A DNA stretch of 63,421 nt, counting the filler. It is 5 parts of 5 records of this genome, joined end to end, with 100 filler letters (N's around TTAATTAATTAA, not from the genome) between each part and the next. Parts side by side here need not be neighbours in the genome. Positions count along the whole stretch, not along the records: positions 36,174 to 51,290 come from SRR22947727_5573; 4 more parts are not named here. The stretch is one strand, 5' to 3'. The notes under the pieces were generated by a model. It was not told the origin of the DNA and ran no database searches. It worked only from the letters and a program-made list of their open reading frames with translations. The translations under genes were made by a program, and so were the position numbers. The number at the start of each line of letters is the position of its first letter. Position 1 is the first letter of the stretch. Shown here piece by piece: positions 1,548 through 62,082 of the stretch.

Positions 1548-1835
1548 ATGAACCTCACAGTAAGCGGACACCATCTCGATGTAACGCAGGCTATTCGCGA
1601 TCACGTGGAAGATAAGCTTTCGCCGATCAAGAGGCACGAGCAGCAAATTACCCGAATAGAGGTGACGTTGATTGTCGAAAAGCACCAACACAAAGCTGAA
1701 GCGAACTTACATCTAGCCGGTGCCGATCTCTTTGCGTCCTCCGAGTCGGACGATATGTACCTCGCCATCGACTCGCTAGCGGATAAGCTCGATCGGCAGG
1801 TCATTAAGTACAAGGGAAAGCATCGAGGCCACTGA
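1548..1835 (+). CDS. hpf: ribosome hibernation promoting factor (short HPF)
   Basis: MNLTVSGHHLDVT...DMYLAIDSLADKLDRQ; follows rpoN. Confidence 0.95.
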   Translation: MNLTVSGHHLDVTQAIRDHVEDKLSPIKRHEQQITRIEVTLIVEKHQHKAEANLHLAGADLFASSESDDMYLAIDSLADKLDRQVIKYKGKHRGH

Positions 1836-1838
1836 TTG

Positions 1839-2300
1839 ATGCTCACTTCGCTCGACATGTCATCGCAACATTTTTTGACGCTCTGTCAGACATCGCTACC
1901 CAGTAAAAAACGATTATTTGAGCGTGCATCAGAAGCCATCGCAGAGACCTTCGACTTACCCAGCGAGGCCATCTATCGAGAACTGCTCGGTAGAGAAAAG
2001 CTAGGTAGTACAGCTATTGGCGAAGGGGTCGCGATACCACATTGCAGAGTCGATCTCTGCACACAGGCCGTCGGTTGCCTGCTCACGTTGGCAGATCCCA
2101 TCGATTTTTCCGCCCTCGATGACCACCCTGTCGATATCGTCTTTATTTTATTGGTCCCCAGAGAGGCCACCCAGGCGCATTTAGACTTGCTGTCTCGTCT
2201 CGCCACCCTTTTTTCCAATTCAGACATGCGTGCTGAGTTGCGAGCAGCAAAAACCACTGAAGCGCTACAACAACTATTATTGTGCGGAAACACCGCGTAA
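1839..2300 (+). CDS. ptsN: PTS nitrogen-regulatory IIA (EIIA-Ntr)
   Basis: REKLGSTAIGEGVAIPHCR phospho-His motif; rpoN operon context; exact start uncertain. Confidence 0.93.
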   Translation: MLTSLDMSSQHFLTLCQTSLPSKKRLFERASEAIAETFDLPSEAIYRELLGREKLGSTAIGEGVAIPHCRVDLCTQAVGCLLTLADPIDFSALDDHPVDIVFILLVPREATQAHLDLLSRLATLFSNSDMRAELRAAKTTEALQQLLLCGNTA

Positions 2301-3172
2301 TGCCCCGAATCATCATCATAAGCGGCAGCTCCGGAGCAGGGAAAAGTACGGCACTGAGACTACTGGAAGACGAAGGGTATTATTGTGTCGACAATTTACC
2401 CCCTCGCCTTCTGCCACATTTCATCGACGAAGTACTCGAGAGCCCATTTCACGATCGTTTTCATGGCGTCGTGGCGTGTATTGATGCGAGAGCGTTTAGA
2501 ATGGAGTCGGGCGGTCAACAGAGCGCCCTGAAGGAGCTTATTGCAATACCCGATCGCCTGATTATCTTCCTCGACGCACAGCCCTATTCGTTAATCAAAA
2601 GATTCAGCGAGACCCGTCGTCGGCATCCCCTAGCCAACAACGATAGTTCTTTACCAGAGGCTATTGCGAAAGAGCGAGAATCTCTCGAGGGCATTGCCGC
2701 CCAAGCCGATCTTCTGATTGACACGACGGATCTCACGCCCCGCGCACTCCGCGACACCATCACAACTCGGATCGTAGAGCAGCGGGATGGGCTTTCGGTC
2801 ATGATCGAATCCTTTGCCTTTAAACGAGGCGTGCCGACCGATGCAGACTTTGTCTTCGATGCCCGCGCAATCCCCAATCCCTATTGGCAAGAAGCATTAC
2901 GCCAGCTGACCGGTCAGGATACGTTAGTGAAACAGTACTTGGACAGCGAGGAGCGATGCTCAGTCTTTTATGAAAGACTGAGCGCATTTATCAGCGGCGT
3001 TGTGACTGATTTTAATCAATGTGATCGCAGCTATATGACCATCGCAATTGGTTGTACCGGTGGGCAGCATCGATCGGTCTACCTCGCCGATAAAATACAC
3101 AAGGACCTGTTGGGGGCATTTCCACATGCATTGATCAGGCACCGTGATCTAAAACATGCTGAGATAACATGA
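2300..3172 (+). CDS. rapZ: RNase adapter RapZ
   Basis: SGSSGAGKS Walker A, CVDNLP, FSETRRRHPL, IGCTGGQHRSV; TAATG overlap with ptsN. Confidence 0.95.
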   Translation: MPRIIIISGSSGAGKSTALRLLEDEGYYCVDNLPPRLLPHFIDEVLESPFHDRFHGVVACIDARAFRMESGGQQSALKELIAIPDRLIIFLDAQPYSLIKRFSETRRRHPLANNDSSLPEAIAKERESLEGIAAQADLLIDTTDLTPRALRDTITTRIVEQRDGLSVMIESFAFKRGVPTDADFVFDARAIPNPYWQEALRQLTGQDTLVKQYLDSEERCSVFYERLSAFISGVVTDFNQCDRSYMTIAIGCTGGQHRSVYLADKIHKDLLGAFPHALIRHRDLKHAEIT

Positions 3173-19622: not shown

Positions 19623-19722
19623 NNNNNNNNNNNNNNNNNNNNNNNNNNNNNNNNNNNNNNNNNNNNTTAATTAATTAANNNNNNNNNNNNNNNNNNNNNN
19701 NNNNNNNNNNNNNNNNNNNNNN
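19623..19722. other. artificial contig linker (Ns with TTAATTAATTAA all-frame stop)
   Basis: Same linker occurs four times; base composition and taxonomy change across it. Confidence 0.98.
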
Positions 19723-36073: not shown

Positions 36074-36173
36074 NNNNNNNNNNNNNNNNNNNNNNNNNNN
36101 NNNNNNNNNNNNNNNNNTTAATTAATTAANNNNNNNNNNNNNNNNNNNNNNNNNNNNNNNNNNNNNNNNNNNN
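36074..36173. other. artificial contig linker
   Basis: N-run + TTAATTAATTAA + N-run. Confidence 0.98.
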
Positions 36174-42648: not shown

Positions 42649-42969
42649 TTAATCTTTTATCAAAGTTCTATGCGTAGAGAGGCGCCGCGTTTGCCCATCT
42701 TTTAAGAAATTTACCGCGGTCACTCGAAATTTTTGGCCATCATCCAACACAATACGATTAAAAACTAAGACGTCCTCATTTTCTGCCACAAGGTTTGGCT
42801 CTTTAAATTGCCAGTCACCCTCAACCAGTTCTCTAATTTCTAATAGCCATTCACCACGATCTTGCATTCCATATTCTTTGAAAAACAAAAACTCTTCATG
42901 GACAAAGCTTTCCATTCTTTCAATTGGCCCATTGTTCATAACATCAACAATAAAATTAAACTTTTCCAA
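42649..42969 (-). CDS. small NTF2/SnoaL-like hypothetical protein
   Basis: GGGAGG RBS before TTG; helix-HEEF-..W-ENE-LKDG pattern; fold inferred. Confidence 0.6.
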   Translation of the reverse strand: MEKFNFIVDVMNNGPIERMESFVHEEFLFFKEYGMQDRGEWLLEIRELVEGDWQFKEPNLVAENEDVLVFNRIVLDDGQKFRVTAVNFLKDGQTRRLSTHRTLIKD

Positions 42970-43115
42970 TAGGACAGCCTCCCGATTTGGCCCAAAACAA
43001 CTCGACGCACAAATATATGGTGTCGTTTATTTATGCTTAATTAGCAAAGCCCTGACCACGCTGCGAATGGACAACATCAATTAAATGAAAATTCAATCAC
43101 TACAAATGCTTTGAT

Positions 43116-43898
43116 TTAGACACCTAGCTTAGCTTTAAGACCACCATCAATCAGAAAGTCGCCACCAATACAAAAGCCGGCGTCGGGCCCTACAAGATAG
43201 GCAACAAGCGCACCAATTTCTTCTACCGTTCCAATCCTTTTAATGGGATGAGATTCACCAAAACCAGAGAGCGTTTCTTCTACATCGCTACCCGGCTCTG
43301 TCAGTTCTGTTGCCGAAAACTCCAGCAGTGGGGTACGGATCGATCCTGGTGAAATCGAGTTCACCCGTATATTATCTTTAGCACAATCGACCGCCAACGC
43401 GCGAGTGAAGGCATGAATTGCACCTTTGCTGGTAGCATAACCCAAAACATTATTCTGGTTTAAATGCCCCTGAACGGAAGCGATGTTAACTATCGATGCC
43501 GTTCGTCGCGATTTTAACAATGGATAAAGAAAATGGGCCATTAGAAAATAGCCAGTAAGATTGATGTCAATCACATTTCGCCATGCTTTTGGGGTCGTGG
43601 TTTCAATATTTCCGTACGTCTGAACACCAGCACAATTGATCAAAGCATCCAATCCGTCGATAACGCCATTAAGCTTGGTTACAAAACTTTGAACAGCTGT
43701 TTCGTCTGATACTTCCAAATCGATAACTTGAATTGGTTTTCCTTTGGTCGCATTTCTAGCCTTTGCATTATCGACTTCACTGTTGCCACATAAAACTACG
43801 CCAAAGCCCTCTGATATTAATTTTTGAGCAACTCCAAAGCCTATACCTGCACTGCCTGTCACAACCGCAATTTTGTCTGTATTCTTCCAGTTCATCAT
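43116..43898 (-). CDS. SDR family oxidoreductase
   Basis: TGSAGIG, NCAG, YATSK, VNSISPG. Confidence 0.93.
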   Translation of the reverse strand: MMNWKNTDKIAVVTGSAGIGFGVAQKLISEGFGVVLCGNSEVDNAKARNATKGKPIQVIDLEVSDETAVQSFVTKLNGVIDGLDALINCAGVQTYGNIETTTPKAWRNVIDINLTGYFLMAHFLYPLLKSRRTASIVNIASVQGHLNQNNVLGYATSKGAIHAFTRALAVDCAKDNIRVNSISPGSIRTPLLEFSATELTEPGSDVEETLSGFGESHPIKRIGTVEEIGALVAYLVGPDAGFCIGGDFLIDGGLKAKLGV

Positions 43899-44111
43899 AC
43901 AACCTCACTTCATTGATCTAGTGATGGTATCTTAAACTTGCAGCACGCAACAATTCACAATGATTTTAAACATCCTTCGTACGAAGATTTGTTTTAACAC
44001 CTAGAACGATACTAATCCTAAGTTAGGTTGCGAACAACGCGTTTCAGGATTTTGCAAATTCTAGTACTTAGACTTTTTTAAAAACAACTTCGAGTATGAT
44101 GCGCATAGGCT

Positions 44112-44432
44112 TTAGTCTTTAACTTGAAAAGAATGCGGTGCGTCCATTTCTAAGCCAGAATAAGCCTCCGTCCGGCTGCCTTCTTCATCCTTTTCTAAAA
44201 GATGGTCTACGCTATCAAGCCACTCAAGCCCGGCAATTTGACCCTCAACTATAGCATCGATACTTGGTATTCGACTGATTTGAACAATTTCACCAGTGTC
44301 TAGCTCTATTAAACTCCAAGTAAGGTCTGGCTTGTTCATAATTTCAGCCAAACGCTCAAGAGCCATTTTAAATTCATCTGAGCAACCATGCTTAGGTGTA
44401 TATTTTATCACTGACCAAACTGCATTTTCCAT
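44112..44432 (-). CDS. small dimeric alpha/beta-barrel-like hypothetical protein
   Basis: 106 aa, WSVIKYTPKHG..EF ABM-like N-terminus; fold inferred. Confidence 0.55.
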   Translation of the reverse strand: MENAVWSVIKYTPKHGCSDEFKMALERLAEIMNKPDLTWSLIELDTGEIVQISRIPSIDAIVEGQIAGLEWLDSVDHLLEKDEEGSRTEAYSGLEMDAPHSFQVKD

Positions 44433-44684
44433 TATTCATCCTAACTATTTTCTTATGACTAATGCGTTACAAAAATATGCAGAGGTTCTAAAAACATTTT
44501 TCGAACAGCCTTGTCAATTTTGTAGGCTTTAACCGAGATTATTTGACCAAAGAAGCTGCTTAGAAATGCTTAAACTGACATATCTAAATAATCCACGGTT
44601 CCTAAATTCTTAAAGAATTGAAAATAATCCTCTATTTCTTCAATGCCAAAGTCTGTGAGCATTGTGCGCATAGGGTTAAATTTG

Positions 44685-45023
44685 TCAAACTTTCACGTCC
44701 GCCCAAACTTGATAGGGATCGCGACCGGAACACTCATTTTTATTAATGTGCATGATAATCGGGTATGCCACCGTTATTAAATTTTCATCCAAGCCATTTT
44801 CCGTAAGCGTAGTCATGATATCTTCCTCTGTTTCCGCCTCCCAATGACAAAAGAAAAAATCATCTGTTCCCACCCAGGTTGCAATACATTGAGCTTTAGG
44901 AAAATTCCATCGGTCTGCCCATTCGTAATCTGTACGAACCGTATTTTTCAAACTTTTAAAAGTATTTTTCTTGGCCAGTTCGCTTTTATAAGTGTGTATT
45001 GCCAGAAATGTTTTGCGCGCCAT
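44685..45023 (-). CDS. DUF4242-like small protein
   Basis: FLAIH...TWV..D.FFCHWEAETEEDI pattern; GGAG RBS. Confidence 0.55.
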   Translation of the reverse strand: MARKTFLAIHTYKSELAKKNTFKSLKNTVRTDYEWADRWNFPKAQCIATWVGTDDFFFCHWEAETEEDIMTTLTENGLDENLITVAYPIIMHINKNECSGRDPYQVWADVKV

Positions 45024-45169
45024 GAGCATTCTCCATTAATTTTTTTTCAGAATAACGCAGCGCAGAAATTTGTAGAACAATTATTTAAGGTGTTTTTATT
45101 AATTCAGCGTAAAGTAAATCAAATACGGCCACGCAAGGTGCCTGCATAGCCGTGTTAATGTTCCAATGT

Positions 45170-45580
45170 TTAAACTTGAGGCTGCTTTTCAACAGACGCG
45201 TCTTTTTTTTCGTCTAAAGACCAAGCACCTGCGCCGTTTGCGAATAAAAATAAGAAACCTCCAGCAATCGCAATATTTTTCATAAAACTTGCCATTTCAT
45301 TTTGATCAGCAAAATTATTATGAAAAATTAGAGCAGATAAAATGCTGAAACCAGCTAATCCCAAAGCAATCCAACGGGTTTGCCAGCCTATGATTATAGC
45401 TATACCGCCGAATACCTCTAAGATTATAACAAAAGGCAGAAGAAAGCTTGGGACGCCCATCGCCTCCATCCAACCCGCTGTAGCGCCGTAGTTAAACAAC
45501 TTATTTAATCCAAACATTATGAAGATAAGCGAGATGAGTACCCTGCTCACTGGCGCGGCAAATGAAGCTGCTTTTTCCAT
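45170..45580 (-). CDS. DoxX family membrane protein
   Basis: RVLISLIFI.FG..K, FH, FMKNIAIAGGFL..GAGAWSLD. Confidence 0.92.
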   Translation of the reverse strand: MEKAASFAAPVSRVLISLIFIMFGLNKLFNYGATAGWMEAMGVPSFLLPFVIILEVFGGIAIIIGWQTRWIALGLAGFSILSALIFHNNFADQNEMASFMKNIAIAGGFLFLFANGAGAWSLDEKKDASVEKQPQV

Positions 45581-45596
45581 TTCGAGATCCTTTATG

Positions 45597-45725
45597 TTAT
45601 GCCTCACGGCACTTTTTTGCCTCATAGGCAGATTTTTCGGCTAAGTACTCTTCTTCGCTCAACAGATGCCAACCGATGCAATTACCATTTGGTGATCGTC
45701 CGCAGGCACATTTTTTTCCATCCAT
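45597..45725 (-). CDS. 42-aa CDGSH-like Cys/His microprotein (not in ORF track)
   Basis: MDGKKCACGRSPNGNCIGWHLLSEEEYLAEKSAYEAKKCREA; AAGGAG RBS; directly upstream of doxX. Confidence 0.75.
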   Translation of the reverse strand: MDGKKCACGRSPNGNCIGWHLLSEEEYLAEKSAYEAKKCREA

Positions 45726-46372
45726 GATATGCTCCTTTTCAAATTCAAAATCATAAGTTGGATATAAAATTTTTTGAGCTCTAGATAAGGCGTAAAAAAC
45801 TGGTCAAAAGGTTCTATTTATGAGCACAGGAATTCGTAGCGCATCAAACAAGCAACACCGCCGCAACCCTCTCATAAAAGCCGAACCGACTATTCAATGC
45901 TGATTTTTTCAAACCCTTAACAAGGGTGATTTTAGGATTGTGAAATGCCGTTTTTGCCTTTGATAAATCTTAGACGCTTGTCAAAAGCTTGGCATCACCG
46001 CGAGGGTAGACCATGATTTACAGGTTCAAGAGTTGGCGCTTATTACGCTTAAAAAAAGACAAGCAATAAATTTTGCGGCGGCTACAGTTAAAAGCCTGGA
46101 AGGGCAGCGAGATTATAGATACCAATCATAAATGGGCTTAGTGGGCCGCAATAGCGGCTATGCCTTCCAGCGCAATGTTCTGGAGAAGGAAGCCGCACAG
46201 GCGCATGCTTGCCCCTAATGGGTACTTCATGCGCCAGCCGCGTCGCATCATCACCCTTCAGCATCACTTTATAGATTTTTCCAGTCACGAGGCCCTGTAA
46301 GGCCGCTAAGTAATTCTTTTATTTTAGAAGCCTTTGGTTACGGTTTTAACAATCTAAAAAGAAGAGATAACA

Positions 46373-46662
46373 ATGATATTCAAGCACAAGAACCGCGCTA
46401 TCCTAGACAATTGGAATAAAGGAGAATTTTAAAAAAATATCCGGATTACATGTTCATTCGCGAAACTGAGCTTGTTAGATTAGATGACTGGGCGGATAAA
46501 ATGGAAAAACGGGTCGTCAGCGGCGAGTTCCTGAAAGATACGAAAGACCGAAGAAAGACATCGTTGGTGCGTGAAAATGAACATCTATCTGAATTGCGGT
46601 TGGAAGAAGGCGGCGATCGAATTACTCTCGTTGTTTTAAAAAAGAAGGGTCTGTTACAATAA
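46373..46662 (+). pseudogene. disrupted paralogue of the 42649-42969 NTF2-like gene
   Basis: MIFKHKNRAILDNWNKGEF* then frameshift into DYMFIRE..DDW..LVRENE..RIT.V; aligns by eye to HEEFLFFKE..GEW..LVAENE..RVT.V. Confidence 0.5.
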
Positions 46663-46818
46663 AAGCCGCTCGCACTTGGGAAAGCTTCAATCTCACCGAC
46701 GAAGTTGTTTTTCAGCGCCACAATTTAAATCTGCGTCTTACTTCTCAGGCCCCAGCCAAATGGCAAATGCACCGCTCATCGTTCCTTTGACAGTCGCAGA
46801 TAAAGCCATTGCTCCTGT

Positions 46819-47376
46819 TTAATCTAGCATCCGCGGCTGACGTTTCGCAGTGATATTTTCAATAGCATCGGCAAGATGAATATCCGCGATTGCCGTGTCA
46901 CCATTCGCAACGCGCAGGCGGTGCGCCTCTGCCAAAACGTCAGCATGCGTTGACCCTTCTGGCGGTTCAAACCGGTAACATGCCAGCTCAACACGCAACC
47001 CAAGCGGGTCGTGAAAATATATACTGTTCATAAACCCGCGATCTTTAACCGGCGTGTGCTTAATGCCGCGCTCCTTTAATCGTTCGCTGACTTGGGTCAG
47101 GACCACGCGTGACACAGAGAAGGCCAGATGGTGCACGGCCCCTATCTGATCTTTTAGAAAGCTTCCGGAAGGTTTTCTGCTTTCATCGGTAAAAACTGTG
47201 ATGGTTTGGCCATTACCCGCAGCAAAATATAGGTGGCCTTGAGACTGGTCATCGAAATTAGGCTGATCAAATATTAAGGAAAAACCCAACAAACCTTCCC
47301 AAAAATCAATCGAGGTTTGGCGGTCTGCACCAGTCAGAGTGATATGATGTATGCCTTGAGCTTGTATCTTGCGCAT
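46819..47376 (-). CDS. VOC/glyoxalase family protein
   Basis: GIHHITL, HLYF, VHHLAF, SIYFHDPLGLRVEL. Confidence 0.92.
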   Translation of the reverse strand: MRKIQAQGIHHITLTGADRQTSIDFWEGLLGFSLIFDQPNFDDQSQGHLYFAAGNGQTITVFTDESRKPSGSFLKDQIGAVHHLAFSVSRVVLTQVSERLKERGIKHTPVKDRGFMNSIYFHDPLGLRVELACYRFEPPEGSTHADVLAEAHRLRVANGDTAIADIHLADAIENITAKRQPRMLD

Positions 47377-47760
47377 TCTTAAAGTTGGTCCTCGATAAAA
47401 TTTACAGGCTTCATCTAACGACTGGCAGTTGATCTAGTCATTGTCATTCATAATCTAGAGCGCTTTCTGTCACACGCCAGAAATTGCAATGTCTATTCTT
47501 CCTAACGCCTGACCGTTAAACGCGGCTGCAACCGTGCAGCCTATCAAATACGTCCAAATAACTTACGCTGGTACTTTTTCAGCGTGATAGGCTGACCAAC
47601 CGGAGCGCCTGCTGAGATAAACCAGTAATGCTCAAAATTTGCTTATCTTTTGAGCGTATTACATTATTTTTTACCCTCCAAAAAAAATAAATTGAAAAAA
47701 GGCCTTAATAGCGGTCTGATCAACTCAGTTACTTAAACAATAAATGGGCATACTGAAATC

Positions 47761-48194
47761 ATGAAAAAAATAGTTATATTATTGCTTGCCCCGGTTTAGT
47801 CTTCGCAGTAAACGCCCACGCTGAGGATAATGCATTGGCGTCCAAGAGTGTGCATTGGTACATCAAAGCAAAGGTAATCACTGAAGATATTGATGCTTTG
47901 AAAGCAGTTATCTCTGAACTTGTTGAAATAACAAAAACTGAAACTGGTGTAACAAATTATGAATTTTATCTCAGTGAAAATAACATGCTCTACGTCTTTG
48001 AACGTTACTTAAACTCTGACGCGGGTGCGGTGCACGGCGCTAATGTTGGAGAAACTGAGGCAATGAAAAATATCTTCTCAATGCTGGAACCAAAAGAATT
48101 CGTTTTATTTGGTGGCCCCTATGAAGGGCCGTGGGGGGATTATATTAAATCACAAGGTATTTCGCCAAAATTAATAGGTGGTTTTAATCGCTAG
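47761..48194 (+). CDS. ABM (antibiotic biosynthesis monooxygenase)-like protein; signal-peptide region frameshifted
   Basis: E.GVTNYEFY, VFERY..S...H; upstream MKKIVILLLA/GLVFAVNAHAED split by a 1-nt frameshift. Confidence 0.7.
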
Positions 48195-48201
48195 CTTAAA
48201 C

Positions 48202-48275
48202 TTAAATGAGTGGGCTGAGCGATCAGCTCCTCAACCGCAACATCCTTTAAAGCCGCTCTAGTCTCTCTTTTCACC
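48202..48275 (-). pseudogene. terS 3'-end remnant, copy 1
   Basis: minus-strand translation KRETRAALKDVAVEELIAQPTH; similar to 48720-48790 and 51179-51250. Confidence 0.7.
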
Positions 48276-48323
48276 ACGGATCATTTATGTTCTAAATTCA
48301 CGAAAGAAAAAAGGAAGCAAGTA

Positions 48324-48710
48324 ATGGCTGAACTAAACGCACACTCTAACCGCATGGTCTTAGTATTTAATTGCAAGGTTAAAAACGCCAGTGATTTCAA
48401 GGCGTGGTCTAAAGATCGAGCGGCAAAATATGTCTACGGCTGTAAAGAAGAAAACACTATTAGTTACGAATGGCACATTTCTGATGACGGATCTGAAGCC
48501 ACTCTTATAGAAACATTTGTAGACAGTGACAGCATGATGGTACGCCTTGGAAACCACGGGGCCAGCCCAATTGCAGCTGAAGTTTTGGAGCTAGTCGACA
48601 TAACTGGCGTTCTATGTTTAGGTAATGCCAAGCAAGATGCCATAGATGCTTTGTCCGCTTGGGGTGCGATCTTTCACGCGCACCATGCTGGCTTTCACAA
48701 AAGCAATTAG
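48324..48710 (+). CDS. ABM-like dimeric alpha/beta-barrel protein
   Basis: E.NTISYEWHISDD...LIETF.DSD; AAGGA RBS. Confidence 0.75.
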   Translation: MAELNAHSNRMVLVFNCKVKNASDFKAWSKDRAAKYVYGCKEENTISYEWHISDDGSEATLIETFVDSDSMMVRLGNHGASPIAAEVLELVDITGVLCLGNAKQDAIDALSAWGAIFHAHHAGFHKSN

Positions 48711-48719
48711 GCAGCGTAT

Positions 48720-49189
48720 TTAATGAGCGGGCTGAGCGATAAGCTCCTCAACACTTGTATGCCTGAAAGCCGCTCTAGCCTCTCCATCTACCTTGGCCGT
48801 GCCATTCACCCGGGGGTGGCGCAAAGTCCGTTTGATTTAACGACATGAAACGGATGATAAGCCGCTGACGCCGCTCAAGCGTATCGATCACCAATAGAAA
48901 CGGGTTTGCAATTGGCGCCCCGCGTTTATTCTAAATCATCATCCCCATGTCATCCAGCTCAATCTGAGCAGCGCGGATGTCTGCATCCATCTGTACAGTT
49001 TTCTCTAATAAGATGACGTCCATATCACGCCAGTGTGACCTCGCGAGAGCGCGGGAGAACTGATGCCAGATTGTTAGCTCAGCCTCTCTGCGTAGCTGCA
49101 TACCAGCAGGCAATAGGATGAAATTATTGATAGTATCAAAAATCCTACGACTGCAGAGGTCGACCTGTTTGGTCTGGTTATTTTTTCAT
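48720..49189 (-). pseudogene. terS: phage terminase small subunit (P27-like) pseudogene
   Basis: reconstructed ...LPAGMQLRREAELTIWHQFSRA..WRDMDVILL..IELDDMGMMI*NKRGAPIANPFL.VIDTLERRQ..IIR.MSLNQT/VNGTAKVDGEARAAF..VEELIAQPAH*; internal TAG at 48931 and frameshifts. Confidence 0.72.
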
Positions 49190-49243
49190 TTCCGAACCTG
49201 TTTAGAGATTGCCATAAATGTGTCATTTTGATATTATAATCCC

Positions 49244-49320
49244 ATTAAGTACCTTTGTTTTATAAAACTCCTGAACGATGGTCTCTAATGCCCTCACTTA
49301 GTTTTAGTGGGGGTTTTTTT
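49244..49320 (+). ncRNA. candidate ~75-nt small RNA
   Basis: TTGCCA-17-TATTAT promoter (49209-49237), CTCCT motif, CCCTCACT/AGTGGGGG-T7 terminator, no ORF. Confidence 0.35.
49291..49320 (+). terminator. intrinsic terminator
   Basis: CCCTCACT-tagtttt-AGTGGGGG-TTTTTTT. Confidence 0.7.
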
Positions 49321-49430
49321 CTTAGACGAGAAGATTGTTTGATGTGGATTCAGGTTTCTTGCTTTTGGCTTTAAGCGATTGGACTACCGCCCGCCTTTAT
49401 TTTAAAAGGATCCAAAATTTTGAGGCATCC

Positions 49431-49676
49431 ATGACATATTTACAGACTTTCATCTTAGTTTTCACTGCGCTTATAGTTGCAATGGGAAACCTCTTTATCC
49501 CTCGCTACTTTGACCGGCAGCAAGAGTTGCGAGATCGCAGCGCAGACTGCGCAACCTATCGCCACTATGCTCAGTCTTACGAAGTTGATGTGGCTAAAAC
49601 TGGTGAGTTCTATATGGCCAAAGGTGATTGTACTAGAATATTCCCGGGTACTTTGGGTCGTTTGGCTAACCCTTAG
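49431..49676 (+). CDS. hypothetical single-TM protein with a Cys pair
   Basis: GAGG RBS, N-terminal hydrophobic helix, two Cys in the soluble part. Confidence 0.5.
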   Translation: MTYLQTFILVFTALIVAMGNLFIPRYFDRQQELRDRSADCATYRHYAQSYEVDVAKTGEFYMAKGDCTRIFPGTLGRLANP

Positions 49677-50164
49677 CGTTAAAGAGATCAGTGTTTTTTA
49701 AAAGCAATTTCCATTTAAAATGAGGCAGATTGACTAGGATAGAGCACAATCCATTTCTATGCTGACATACCAGCTATACGATTTTGTTGATGGAGAGTTC
49801 TTTGGATGACGGAGAATGAAAAGTAGGCGCTCAGGAATTCAATGGCGGGTAAAAAAGTTTCCGAAATGACCACACAAGAGCGCAAGCTTTTTGTTCAAGA
49901 GTTTCAATATGGATTTGCGCAAAAGCCTTAGAAAGAGGATACAACTATAAAACCTGCCCAGCTTTCTACGCCCAAAGATCTAACTATTGGGTATCGTAGC
50001 CGCATAAATTTAATTATAAGACGGTAACTTTAATGGATATATTGGTAAGCAAAGAGTTCAAATAAATTTAACGCTTTTCGATTCAAACAGATAGGGTGTT
50101 GATCATGAGTGACGATTACTTCCAGCCAGTGTTTTGACCTTCGGTGTGTAAAAGCACGGCTCGC

Positions 50165-50587
50165 CTAATCGCGGTCTGTTTCATCAGTAGCAGAGCCTGG
50201 GCGGATCAAGTTCACCAAATTCCACCGGATCACCAAAGCTGACACTGCCAGCAGCAAGATGGCGCTACTTTCATAAAGTAAATCAATGGTGTTTATGCCC
50301 TTGCCTTGCAATATAATCAAACGGCAAAGTGCTGTTATTGCTATAAAAATTGGCACTGTTATCGGAATTTTTCGATATTTATAAAATGCTGCGACCATTC
50401 CCAAAACCTCAGCATAAATAAACAATAACAAAAGATCGGTCAGCTTCACTGCACGGATAGAAACCACTGATATAATCTCAACTAAAACGGCGTAGGCGGT
50501 TAAAAATGCGATTACGACAAGCAGCGATTTTTCCATCAAAGTGATGAAACTATACCAGTCAAATTTTAGTTTTTTTATCTTTTCCAT
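50165..50587 (-). CDS. phosphate-starvation-inducible PsiE family membrane protein
   Basis: DLLLLFIYAEVLGMV, PIFIAITALCRLII. Confidence 0.85.
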   Translation of the reverse strand: MEKIKKLKFDWYSFITLMEKSLLVVIAFLTAYAVLVEIISVVSIRAVKLTDLLLLFIYAEVLGMVAAFYKYRKIPITVPIFIAITALCRLIILQGKGINTIDLLYESSAILLLAVSALVIRWNLVNLIRPGSATDETDRD

Positions 50588-50795
50588 GAAGGAAATGTAA
50601 ACCGTAGACGTATCATGTCCACTATGATCGCCTATTTTGTAACTTTCAACGCTCGTGAAATCGTAGAACAACTGCTTAAAAAAGTAATTTTGTGTTTAGA
50701 GGACCTACGGCAAACGATAACTTATTTGGCTGAAGATTTGACAAACGCAAATTAATAAAATTGAGCTAAATTAAATACTATTAAAGAGAGAAGAT

Positions 50796-51164
50796 ATGAC
50801 AACTGAAGATTTGGTAATGTCCGCACATCGCGCATTTGGCGCGGGAAATATGGAAGCATTATCTTACCTTAATTACCCCGATTGCACCTAAAACATCCAT
50901 GTCCAACATGCTTTATCTGGAACCTACCATGGCTTTACTGCCTTTCTTGAGGGCTCTCTAAGCAAGCTAAATGATGCATGGCCCGGATTTATGCCATATA
51001 TCGATAAAGTCGTCGCGAAGGGCACCAGCGTTTTTGTACCGCCAACATGTTCAGTCGATGGCGGCTTAAGCGGCAAGGCCATCCATCATTTCGTGGTCAT
51101 AGACAGTCTATAATTTAGCTGTGATATTTACTGGGGCGGGTGAATATTGAGCGGAGCATTGTAA
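50796..51164 (+). pseudogene. SnoaL/NTF2-like pseudogene with three in-frame stops
   Basis: MTTEDLVMSAHRAFGAGNMEAL..PDCT*..HALSGTYHG..WPGF..IDKVVA.G..HHFVV.D.L*..*ILSGAL*. Confidence 0.7.
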
Positions 51165-51178
51165 GATTTGAAATGAAT

Positions 51179-51290
51179 TTAATGAGCGAGCTGAACAATC
51201 AGCCCCTCAACAGCAACATTCTTGAATACGGTTCGTGTCTTATCCCTCTAAAGCTGCGCCAGATTGATGTTCATTTGCACGATGGTTTGG
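51179..51290 (-). pseudogene. terS 3'-end remnant, copy 3, running off the contig end
   Basis: minus-strand ...N.AQL*RDKTRTVFKNVAVEGLIVQLAH*. Confidence 0.65.
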
Positions 51291-51390
51291 NNNNNNNNNN
51301 NNNNNNNNNNNNNNNNNNNNNNNNNNNNNNNNNNTTAATTAATTAANNNNNNNNNNNNNNNNNNNNNNNNNNNNNNNNNNNNNNNNNNNN
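51291..51390. other. artificial contig linker
   Basis: N-run + TTAATTAATTAA + N-run. Confidence 0.98.
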
Positions 51391-51808: not shown

Positions 51809-52309
51809 TTACTTTTTAGTAATTGCTTCTGGCGTAACGTCAATGATATTTTTTCCTTCTCCGATTTTTTTCTCGAGTTCGGATAAACGTTTCTCAAGTT
51901 GTTCACGCGACATTCCCTCCAAGGTGTTATGAGTTACTTCTTTTTTATCAACATATAGACCAGCTAATTGGCCAGATCTAAATTCAGCGTTTATAGCTGA
52001 TGCAAATTGATTTTTATTAGCGGCAGTGTCTCCAAACTTTTCAAATCTCTTAAACGATCTAAGTTTGTTGGCATACTTGCCTTGTTCTTGTGCTAATTTC
52101 TTTTCAAGATATCTCACAACATGTGGATTCCTATTGGGATTAGTTAGTTTCGCAGCGATAGTGTTAGGGTCTTTAGCTGTATATCCAGCTTGTCTAGCAG
52201 CTTCAGTCTTACTTATGTAACCAAAGTTAGCTACGTAAATTTCAACAAATCTTCTTTGCTTTGCTGTTAAATCATTTACAGTTTTTATTACGTTTGCTTT
52301 CCCTGCCAT
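51809..52309 (-). CDS. terS: terminase small subunit
   Basis: LTAKQRRFVEIY..TEAARQAGY HTH, NPHV..Y, GLYVDKKEV. Confidence 0.88.
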   Translation of the reverse strand: MAGKANVIKTVNDLTAKQRRFVEIYVANFGYISKTEAARQAGYTAKDPNTIAAKLTNPNRNPHVVRYLEKKLAQEQGKYANKLRSFKRFEKFGDTAANKNQFASAINAEFRSGQLAGLYVDKKEVTHNTLEGMSREQLEKRLSELEKKIGEGKNIIDVTPEAITKK

Positions 52310-57852: not shown

Positions 57853-57952
57853 NNNNNNNNNNNNNNNNNNNNNNNNNNNNNNNNNNNNNNNNNNNNTTAA
57901 TTAATTAANNNNNNNNNNNNNNNNNNNNNNNNNNNNNNNNNNNNNNNNNNNN
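57853..57952. other. artificial contig linker
   Basis: N-run + TTAATTAATTAA + N-run. Confidence 0.98.
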
Positions 57953-61319: not shown

Positions 61320-62082
61320 TGTAAGAGAGTTCAAAGCTACTGAAATTGAGATTGGATTTATACATGAAAGTTCTTCTCAGGCAAGAACTGATTTTAATGA
61401 TTCAAAATTAAGCGAGCTTGCTGATTCTATTCGGAAGAACGGAATCCTTCAGCCATTGATTGTTCAAGAAATATCAACTAATAAATATGAATTAATTGCT
61501 GGAGAAAGACGCCTTAGAGCTTCAAAAATTGCAAATCTCAAAAAAATACCCTGCCTAATAAAAGACGTCAGCACAAGAGATGCCGCGGTTATCGGGCTTG
61601 TAGAAAACATACAAAGAGCTCAACTAAATGCAATGGATGAGTCCTTGGGCTTTAAACAACTTTCAGACACACATAAACTTGATCCAAAAGAAATAGGTCT
61701 CTTAGTTGGCAAAAGCCGGTCTTATGTTTCTAACTCACTAAGGCTTTCTAAACTTTCAGATAAGGTCATAAATTCTCTTAAAATAAATGATGTATCCATG
61801 GGCCAGGTCAGGCCACTAATTAACCTTCCCCATGAAATTCAGGAAAACATATTAGAAGAGATTAAACTTTTAAACTTATCAAGTAGACAAGTTGAAAATA
61901 AAGTCAGAGAAATAAACTCATCAGAACCAAGCTCAGAGGAAACCACATTGTTTTACAAAAATTACTTTGAAGACAAGACTGGGTCAAAAGCCGAAGTGCA
62001 AACAAAAAAAGGCAAGTATAAAGTTATTTTGAATTTTAACTCGACAGAATCTCTAAAAAATTTTGTTGAAAAAATAGATTAG
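61282..62082 (+). CDS. parB: chromosome partitioning protein ParB/Spo0J
   Basis: GILQPL, IAGERRLRA, ENIQR, GKSRSYVSNSLRL HTH. Confidence 0.95.
   Translation: MKRSLSSLITDTNVREFKATEIEIGFIHESSSQARTDFNDSKLSELADSIRKNGILQPLIVQEISTNKYELIAGERRLRASKIANLKKIPCLIKDVSTRDAAVIGLVENIQRAQLNAMDESLGFKQLSDTHKLDPKEIGLLVGKSRSYVSNSLRLSKLSDKVINSLKINDVSMGQVRPLINLPHEIQENILEEIKLLNLSSRQVENKVREINSSEPSSEETTLFYKNYFEDKTGSKAEVQTKKGKYKVILNFNSTESLKNFVEKID

Follow-up and report, generated by a model that had tools for sequence, protein, structure and literature searches.

The last ~8.7 kb (positions 42649-51290) of one contig in the 63,421-nucleotide (nt) stretch of DNA analysed here, referred to as the window, probably represent a decayed phage-like element of marine Rhodobacteraceae. 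Under this reading, to which we assign a probability of about 0.7, the short repeats within the island are scars, or stubs, left by the stacking and loss of cargo genes at the junctions between packaging genes. The packaging genes concerned encode an HNH protein, the terminase small subunit (terS), the terminase large subunit (terL) and the portal. The island is a remnant that has lost the portal gene, the greater part of terL and everything concerned with integration and replication. A preliminary description of the same DNA had noted the repeats and the small genes beside them and had explained them by terS-bearing, satellite-like elements that integrated repeatedly at one hotspot and decayed. 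The window consists of five contigs joined by spacers of 44 N, TTAATTAATTAA and 44 N (n=4). Gene neighbourhood across the spacers is meaningless, and the joined contigs may derive from more than one organism. The repeats all lie on the contig at 36174-51290, and position 51290 is the end of that contig.

A direct-repeat search recovers three copies of the repeat, at 48202-48267, at 48719-48784 (80% identical to the first) and at 51178-51243 (73% identical to the first). A DNA profile of the terS 3' end, built from the last 120 nt of the genes of 46 full-length relatives, finds all of these ~66-nt copies on the minus strand, with E values of 1e-8, 1.9e-12 and 3e-6 for copies 1, 2 and 3, respectively. 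The minus-strand translations of the three copies are as the preliminary description gave them, and copy 2 is the end of a near-complete broken gene that runs from about 49226 to 48720 on the minus strand. Each copy lies 7-11 nt from the stop codon of a convergent small gene (stops at 48194, 48710 and about 51171), the third of which is a SnoaL_2-type pseudogene, as had been proposed. Copies 1 and 2 are present in the metagenome contigs L071, L073, L074 and L075 (~98% identity) and copy 3 in L073, L075, L080 and L081, which rules out misassembly.

The copies had been read as diverged alleles rather than products of a recent duplication, and this is upheld. Copies 1 and 2 are each 85-86% identical to the allele of L016 and 77% identical to each other. 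That both are nearer to the L016 allele than to each other supports independent descent. The many synonymous changes cited in favour of the same reading are not seen. The differences between copies are even over the codon positions ([7,3,5], [6,6,8] and [8,9,8]), synonymous and non-synonymous codon changes number only 1/9, 4/11 and 3/13, and the codon-position comparison of the three copies gives no signal of coding constraint.

The broken gene is identified, from profile matches and a predicted fold, as a phage terS of the HK97/P27 type. Its read-through translation matches the small-terminase family phrog_5601 (E 1.7e-6) and Pfam Terminase_4 (PF05119; E 5.9e-4, 20.6 bits). The terS identity proposed earlier is supported for the gene and its diverged alleles, and the window pseudogene itself remains below the Terminase_4 cut-off of 24.7 bits. 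Among the intact relatives, P0095 (26.6 bits), L003 (25.5) and L029 (25.4) are above this cut-off and P0017 (24.5) is just below it. Against TIGR01558, with a cut-off of 45.6 bits, only 16.4-16.7 bits are reached. At E<=0.001 there are 276 relatives, typically 156 amino acids (aa) long and with a C-terminal motif like that of the window; PF26841 (precomputed) is present on 114 of 120 among the matches listed. A profile of 32 relatives aligns with HK97 small terminase in the PDB over positions 2-155 of 156 (E 3.5e-4). When the AlphaFold model (mean predicted local distance difference test score, pLDDT, 75) is compared with known folds, HK97 terS chains (PDB 8pop and 6z6e) rank first to fifth, with probabilities of 0.85-1.00, template modelling (TM) scores of 0.48-0.57 and weak Foldseek E values (0.015 to 0.56). 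In the collection of cultured phages searched, no terS is closer than ~35% identity, the best being those of Ralstonia and Burkholderia phages.

The terS pseudogene contains a 5' frameshift, an in-frame TAG and a 3' frameshift, and no intact frame remains. Three frames are used in turn: one for the first 29 codons, which match the start of the related protein P0015, a second for the body with its TAG, and a third for the last 22 codons. These lesions differ in their distribution. The 5' frameshift is common to the window and L075, the TAG (place 48933) reads Glu in other populations, and the 3' frameshift is a one-base difference found in only some populations, among them the metagenome variants P0003 and P0004. 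The ratio of non-synonymous to synonymous substitution (dN/dS) is 0.40-0.58 for the terS remnant in five comparisons. In contrast, it is 0.09-0.12 for the 128-aa cargo gene that converges on copy 2, measured against three diverged copies. In the intact relatives, the ratio is 0.00-0.09 for terS and 0.00-0.12 for terS, terL and portal together. Because the TAG reads Glu elsewhere, the 3' frameshift is present in only some populations and dN/dS is relaxed, the decay of terS is still ongoing while the 128-aa cargo gene is kept.

Sixty-six related loci were gathered by terS similarity, 15 from genomes (Rhodobacteraceae, Paracoccaceae and other Alphaproteobacteria) and 51 from IMG/VR. Their open reading frames (ORFs) were clustered, and the clusters were named with Pfam and PHROGs. 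The conserved order in these loci is HNH, terS, terL (TerL_ATPase + TerL_nuclease) and portal; the more distant members continue with an S78 protease (Peptidase_S78), an HK97-type capsid (Phage_capsid), connectors and a tail tube. In the relatives' packaging operon, terS precedes terL. In the window, a terL 5' stub is found downstream of terS with two cargo genes between them. This stub, ~200 nt long, is recovered by tblastn, by translation and by a terL 5' profile (E 6.3e-15), and it corrects the earlier statement that no terL is visible. The idea of an element with terS alone is likewise not congruent with the intact relatives, in which terS is co-directional with terL and portal and, in the distant ones, also with protease, capsid and tail genes.

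A variable cargo slot beside terS, as first suggested, is real. Reverse ORFs are present in the terS-terL gap of 24 of the 45 loci that have a whole terS and a downstream terL; they are the only ORFs in 21 of these gaps and are accompanied by forward ORFs in 3. The gap contains forward ORFs only in 10 loci and no ORF in 11, and in 6 of the latter terS and terL overlap or abut. The forward-only ORFs are a ParB-methylase and a Mom-like gene. Nine of the 21 reverse-only loci form one near-identical lineage. Outside this count are 3 loci with terS but no terL on the locus and 18 without a whole terS. The reverse gap genes stop within ~20 nt of the terS stop. The slot is thus directly behind terS, inside a phage packaging operon.

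More than one terS 3' end is present in 7 of 67 sources, with 12 solo stubs in total. End profiles applied to 82 sources reveal extra stubs of the terL 3' end (9 loci, 2 lineages), the HNH 3' end (9 loci) and the terL 5' end (3 loci). Neither end of the portal gene occurs in extra copies, nor does the terS 5' end. Most of the 3' stubs that were mapped have the stop of a reverse cargo gene no more than a few bases beyond them. The unit of terS 3' end plus cargo that one locus has on a full terS may stand behind a solo stub elsewhere, as is seen for the cargo clusters c89 (L009 versus L020, 91% over 357 nt), c6 (L020 versus L009, 86% over 355 nt) and c64 (the window versus L009 and L010, 87% over 570 nt). 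Identity across these units is 86-91%, compared with only 74-75% between the terS bodies of the loci that share them.

The position of the stubs in the relatives favours events within the terS-terL gap of a single element over repeated integration of whole elements. In L020, a solo terS stub lies between two cargo genes inside the gap between a whole terS (156 aa) and a whole terL (528 aa), and the portal gene (409 aa) is also whole. In L009 and L010, each unit runs from a terS stub through a cargo gene to a terL 5' stub, which is directly adjoined by the terS stub of the following unit. If terS-bearing satellites with one cargo gene each had repeatedly integrated at one hotspot and decayed to units of terS 3' end plus cargo, units of the 0.5-0.7 kb seen in L009 and L010, with terL 5' stubs abutting terS stubs, would require several ~15-kb deletions with similar ends, and the stub of L020 would have to have arisen between intact packaging genes. 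Like stubs are also found at the HNH-terS and terL-portal junctions. The hotspot history does agree with the position of copy 3, which is upstream of the terS pseudogene with unrelated genes between, with the closer relationship of copies 1 and 2 to the L016 allele than to each other, and with the presence of an integrase at both ends of the L020 locus, from which tandem elements may exist. However, the integration genes that it had led one to look for are missing. No integrase or primase is found on the contig, either among its 15 longest ORFs (Pfam scan) or by tblastn with the relatives' genes; the 5.8 kb past the contig end in L075 contain no integrase, primase or tRNA; and no tRNA gene is found in the window or in 17 related loci, nor was an att site found. 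We consider this history unlikely.

The boundaries of the stubs bear on a second alternative, a site-specific cassette system resembling an integron or att array in which the ~66-nt terS end would be the site of a dedicated recombinase. The topology is integron-like, with short single genes in one orientation that are each beside a repeat. As in promoterless cassettes, the 13-56 nt between the start of a cargo gene and the next stub leave no room for a full promoter, and the stub lengths are clustered. A fixed site is nevertheless difficult to reconcile with the stub left ends, whose distance from the stop, judged by eye, ranges between about 62 and 95 nt, and with the two terL-stub/terS-stub junctions of L009, which show only 0-3 nt of microhomology. 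Stubs of HNH, terS and terL at three junctions would need three site specificities, and several adjacent cargo genes have no stub between them. A 7+4+7 palindrome in the Gly-Leu-Ile-Ala-Gln-Pro codons was considered as a conserved stub hairpin and rejected; it is present in one clade only, shows no compensatory changes and adds no folding stability. Compared with shuffled sequence, the three window copies fold with z values of -0.05 to 0.13, and terminator prediction gives no terminator-like site inside any stub. The integrases of the relatives have phage-type domains only (Arm-DNA-bind_3 + Phage_int_M, or Phage_int_SAM_1). A cassette system is very unlikely on these grounds. Because the stub ends vary, the junctions have 0-3 nt of microhomology, three genes supply stubs, some neighbouring cargo genes lack them and neither a fold nor a terminator is evident, the array points to recombination anchored in gene ends, or to duplication of junctions, with no dedicated site or recombinase. 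That the repeats are non-coding functional elements (a terminator, small RNA or packaging site), chance matches or misassembly is scarcely credible, for although each stub is directly behind the stop of a convergent gene, where a terminator is expected, and contigs from two RNA libraries that run from the 128-aa gene into terS antisense give a weak hint in its favour (DNA being possible in such libraries), the stubs hold no terminator-like site, fold with z about 0, match the terS 3'-end profile (E 1e-8 to 3e-6), end at the terS stop and recur in the same arrangement in independent metagenome assemblies at ~98% identity.

One natural allele has the structure that recombination between two stubs should leave. 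L077, with 96-97% identity to the window, is without the 128-aa gene and one repeat. Its single repeat is chimeric, copy 2-like on the 5' side and copy 1-like on the 3' side. The switch falls within a 24-nt stretch in which L077, copy 1 and copy 2 of L075 are identical and copy 2 of the window differs by 1 base. The allele fits the product of stub-stub recombination, either as a loss or as the state before a gain. A DNA contig that joins 48251 to 48718 was set aside as unreliable, one side being just 27 nt, and was not used.

The anatomy of the island, its family context, the stubs at three junctions with their variable ends, the deletion allele with its chimeric repeat and the contrast in selection are direct observations, and from them we infer the mode and direction of module insertion. 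The family has a packaging operon of HNH, terS, terL and portal with cargo genes in the junctions, mostly in reverse, their stops abutting the stop of the upstream core gene. A new cargo module would bring along the terminal ~45-120 nt of the upstream core gene. The conserved 3' end would anchor the recombination, and the other side would be closed by an illegitimate join; alternatively, the junction would be duplicated and one cargo gene would then be replaced. The resident 3' end and the old cargo gene would be pushed downstream as a solo stub with its cargo. Repeated events of this kind would produce the order terS, 128-aa gene, stub, 119-aa gene and terL stub. The stubs would then serve as direct repeats, between which homologous recombination could delete cassettes and possibly re-insert them. 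The packaging genes of this genome have decayed, leaving a terS pseudogene, a terL stub and no portal gene, with the cargo retained as host genes.

Several points weigh against this explanation. The insertion step itself is unobserved, only a deletion (or pre-insertion) allele being seen, and L077 fits equally well as the ancestral state before insertion of the 128-aa gene. A symmetric illegitimate process leaves the excess of duplicated upstream 3' ends over downstream 5' ends unexplained. The stub lengths cluster, at 44-117 nt; we propose that such clustering would come from the loss of long repeats together with a packaging size limit. In place of the Glu-Gly of other alleles, copies 1 and 2 both have a derived GAG-GAG (Glu-Glu), which suggests some gene conversion or a local origin. 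Copy 3 is upstream of the terS pseudogene, beyond the PsiE gene and another ORF, and abuts a truncated insertion sequence (IS) fragment; it may have another history, as part of a second element or of a larger rearrangement. The related loci were collected by terS similarity and many are short fragments, and the counts given here do not constitute a population survey.

The closest relatives, L016, L020 and L063, have an integrase, a primase-helicase, HNH, terS, terL and portal, and no protease or capsid gene is detected in them by tblastn. L022 and L023 have terS, terL and portal only, with a partial HNH match and no integrase or replication match. In L002, host-like genes come after HNH, terS, terL and portal, and neither an integrase nor a replication gene is seen. 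In a second lineage (L032-L040), represented by L039, terS, terL and portal are followed by a 13% protease remnant and no capsid gene, which suggests an independent loss of the protease-capsid block. The terL gene is split in several of the capsid-less relatives, and their contigs end at or near the integrase, leaving the element boundaries undefined. A large reverse ORF at the left edge of L022 and L023 was considered as a recombinase and rejected, as it encodes a gamma-glutamyltranspeptidase. IS3-family and IS240-type (DDE_Tnp_IS240) insertions recur among the relatives (L003 8554-9683 and 15682-16422; L018 11392-12524; L021 11263-11550), and one insertion sequence in L003 is directly upstream of terS.

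These gene contents resemble those of satellites such as phage-inducible chromosomal islands (PICIs), capsid-forming PICIs (cf-PICIs) and virion-encapsidated integrative mobile elements (VEIMEs). VEIMEs have terS homologues, and their large terminase, capsid and tail genes are presumed to be helper-derived, with no portal in the main text of the paper that describes them (PMC9618062). The satellite-like character assigned to the element in the preliminary description may therefore hold for relatives syntenic with the island, which have integrase, replication, HNH, terS, terL and portal genes and no detectable capsid. It does not apply to the window copy, which is without integrase or primase and, unlike a PICI-like satellite, is not itself a satellite. 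A new type of satellite is possible for the capsid-less relatives, and a series of decaying prophages is at least as likely. A broader proposal can be made only tentatively and is doubtful as a whole. It states that recombinase-free cargo arrays form by 3'-end displacement at the HNH/terS, terS/terL and terL/portal junctions and that the stubs act as portable homology for the excision, loss and re-insertion of cassettes between elements. The closest clade, which runs from integrase to portal without protease or capsid and is under strong purifying selection, would be a new satellite with its own terminase and portal and with helper capsid and tail. If this were true, the clade closest to the window would be a cargo-gene shuttle among marine roseobacters.

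Several known systems share part of this anatomy. The relatives share the order HNH, Terminase_4, TerL_ATPase + TerL_nuclease and Phage_portal with the HK97-type packaging module; unlike that module, their core genes are split by reverse accessory genes and core-gene stubs, and the module of the window is decayed. The accessory genes of the island behave like morons, which in lambdoid and other temperate phages are independently oriented accessory genes between late genes, some of which would be expressed from the prophage. Classical morons are described with their own promoter and terminator. We know of no description of morons with duplicated ends of a neighbouring core gene. Integron cassettes are alike in that short genes of uniform orientation, each next to a repeat, form an array. 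In the island, however, neither an integrase gene nor an attC-like fold was found, the boundaries vary and certain cassettes are without a repeat.

The C-terminal displacement arrays of rhs, contact-dependent inhibition (CDI) and type VI secretion system (T6SS) genes are closest in mechanism, though not in family. In the model proposed in PMC5361080, their orphan modules arise by means of a conserved upstream anchor and an illegitimate far join, and the old 3' end and its partner are displaced downstream. The pieces in the present case are 44-117-nt ends of packaging genes, the partners are unrelated reverse genes for small enzymes and membrane proteins, and there is no toxin-immunity logic. 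PeSL (promoter early stem-loop) cassettes of T4-type phages contain small variable genes bounded by short repeats and undergo modular shuffling, according to the titles of PMC2839356 and PMC4122927. The PeSL repeats are described in these titles as promoter-terminator motifs, whereas the repeats of the island are coding pieces without sign of structure. Tycheposon islands hold arrays of partial target genes from successive insertions, as outlined in 10.1101/2020.12.28.424599; unlike these, neither the window nor the 17 related loci contain a tRNA target or a partial tRNA. Literature searches on roseobacter satellites, terminase-gap morons and HK97-like Rhodobacteraceae prophages listed no paper with a description of the element family or of the stubs in its title or the opening lines of its abstract, and the supplements of PMC9618062 and 10.1101/2020.12.28.424599 may list relatives.

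The uptake of host-useful genes by phages is an old question that has mostly been approached by inference from mosaic boundaries, and here the scars are preserved and repeated. The stubs mark successive additions at defined junctions in many related loci, and one natural allele shows a cassette lost or not yet gained. Cargo gain by one-sided homology ("displacement") is now testable in abundant marine bacteria. The island also bears on the fate of cargo: the packaging genes have decayed, yet at least one small cargo gene has been kept by purifying selection and is now an ordinary gene of the chromosome. For annotation, the stubs account for short orphan ORFs and repeats in the genomic islands of Rhodobacteraceae.

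Neither the 119-aa nor the 128-aa cargo gene has a Pfam match, even at E up to 1. For the 119-aa gene, the first Atlas cluster scores 0.94 and all of its members have PF03992 (ABM), no more than a lead. With the 128-aa gene, ABM is not reached until Atlas rank 22, where 40% of members carry it. The model of this gene (pLDDT 59.5, low confidence) matches the ABM-fold proteins Rv0793, MupZ, SPO2313 and SnoaB at E values of 6e-4 to 4e-3. The ABM labels that these weak matches suggest for the two genes are reasonable. The third cargo gene (50796..51171) has several in-frame stops and a frameshift; its intact relatives in cluster c90 match SnoaL_2 at E values of 5e-13 and 7.5e-12, which assigns it by homology to the SnoaL_2 family. 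Contigs from two RNA libraries (X14 and X16, from two metatranscriptome studies) fall within 48291-48862. They begin ~30 nt ahead of the 128-aa gene and extend for 100-150 nt into terS antisense. Transcription of the gene with an antisense-terS tail is weakly suggested by these contigs, which may also stem from carried-over DNA. The strongest terminator-like site of the region is a hairpin on the cargo strand, just beyond the start of the terS pseudogene, and read-through cargo transcripts antisense to terS would end there.

The features of the island are listed in Table 1 together with the contig spacers and with solo stubs of the relatives. A short stretch between the terS pseudogene and the adjacent 113-aa ORF resembles the region upstream of terS in the relatives. 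The order of the three post-portal fragments, c32-c11-c12, is that of L016 and L063, and c11-c12 are also in this order in L023. Full-length c12 is a D5-type primase-helicase. In L023 it is located at 1754-3073 (-) and encodes 439 aa with D5_N, DUF5906 and Pox_D5; elsewhere the cluster comprises short post-portal ORFs with a GTA_holin_3TM match. The L023 gene adjoins one for a 298-aa tyrosine recombinase and is possibly part of a separate small integrative element. The genes within 42649..45725 cluster with cargo genes of related elements.

Table 1. Features of the island in order of descending coordinates (the direction of terS), followed by window spacers and by solo stubs in related loci.
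Feature	Position	Strand	Basis or remark
IS3-family transposase orfA fragment (gene interior), at contig end	51252..51290	+	97% over 34 nt to HTH_Tnp_1 ORFs of L018, L021
Solo terS 3'-end stub, copy 3, strongly diverged	51172..51244	-	Profile E 3e-6; best full-length allele 73%
SnoaL_2-type cargo pseudogene, cluster c90, convergent with copy 3	50796..51171	+	tblastn 55% over 113 aa to L030 gene
PsiE-family membrane protein gene, cargo	50165..50671	-	Pfam PsiE E 4.4e-17
113-aa ORF (81 aa from ATG 49433), without family match	49335..49676	+	Absent from L076, L079
Terminator-like hairpin + T run	49290..49314	+	9-pair stem, 5 G-C pairs
HK97/P27-type terS pseudogene (assigned by homology); last 66 nt = copy 2	48720..49226	-	Terminase_4, phrog_5601, HK97 profile/fold
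128-aa cargo gene, cluster c64, ABM/dimeric alpha-beta-barrel-like fold (predicted)	48324..48710	+	Low-confidence model; absent from L077
Solo terS 3'-end stub, copy 1	48197..48270	-	Profile E 1e-8; 86% to L016 allele
119-aa ABM-like cargo gene	47835..48194	+	Atlas feature search, lead only
terL 5' stub, ~codons 8-60, with frameshift + stops	about 47495..47693	-	blastn 74-77% to terL starts of L016, L018, L019, L020, L063
Glyoxalase/VOC-family gene, cargo	46819..47376	-	Pfam Glyoxalase E 9e-14
Three fragments of post-portal genes: c32 (46812-46741), c11 SnoaL-like pseudogene (46438-46635), c12 (46318-46202)	46202..46812	.	blastn/tblastn to relatives
Small c54-like ORF	45597-45725	-	Cluster common to relatives' cargo
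DoxX gene	45170-45625	-	Pfam
Weak SCO4226-like c9	44685-45029	-	Pfam / cargo cluster
c42	44112-44432	-	Cargo cluster
SDR gene	43116-43898	-	Pfam
Weak SnoaL-like c11	42649-42969	-	Pfam / cargo cluster
Contig spacers	19623-19722, 36074-36173, 51291-51390, 57853-57952		
Solo terL/HNH 3' stubs flanking cargo, terL-portal and HNH-terS junctions	L039 7455-7522, 7791-7907; L007 9878-9935; L002 9437-9482; L020 9438-9510; L028 1588-1701		

The left part of the contig has 48-51% G+C and ordinary metabolic genes (HMGL-like, family III CoA-transferase and TRAP transporter). From 42649 on, the G+C content is ~34-46% and the contig is rich in small genes; the low-coordinate neighbour of the island is a host TRAP transporter gene. 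The CoA-transferase of the window is 89% identical at the protein level to that of a Paracoccaceae bacterium genome (L007/G004), and the DNA is 87% identical to this genome over 2.5 kb, with synteny that stops before the island. Because of these two matches, the host is assigned by similarity to the marine members of the Rhodobacteraceae/Paracoccaceae group. At a word share >=0.71, the stretch is present in 13 DNA runs of seawater or marine origin, which belong to 10 studies; the sequencing runs were examined as assembled contigs. Eleven metagenome contigs match the island, mostly at ~98% identity, and one match is from a 97.8-kb contig that spans the whole island.

Past the contig end, L075 continues with ~0.8 kb of IS remnant, followed by 2-oxoacid dehydrogenase and aldehyde dehydrogenase genes. 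L073, L075, L080 and L081 contain 67 nt between the IS fragment and copy 3 that are absent from the window (51252-51262). An 8-nt direct repeat bounds the absent piece, which was either genuinely deleted or dropped through slippage of the assembly at the contig end.

The five joined contigs have G+C contents of about 53%, 38%, 42-50%, 34% and 31%. The next low-G+C contig after the island contains an unrelated small terminase gene at 51809-52309 (-) of the window (Pfam Terminase_2, E 5.7e-8; phrog_51) with small ORFs around it; this gene looks as though it belongs to another phage. Positions 61327-61560 of the window, in the last low-G+C contig, weakly match by tblastn (36% over 78 aa) the ParB-methylase found in the terS-terL gap of some relatives.

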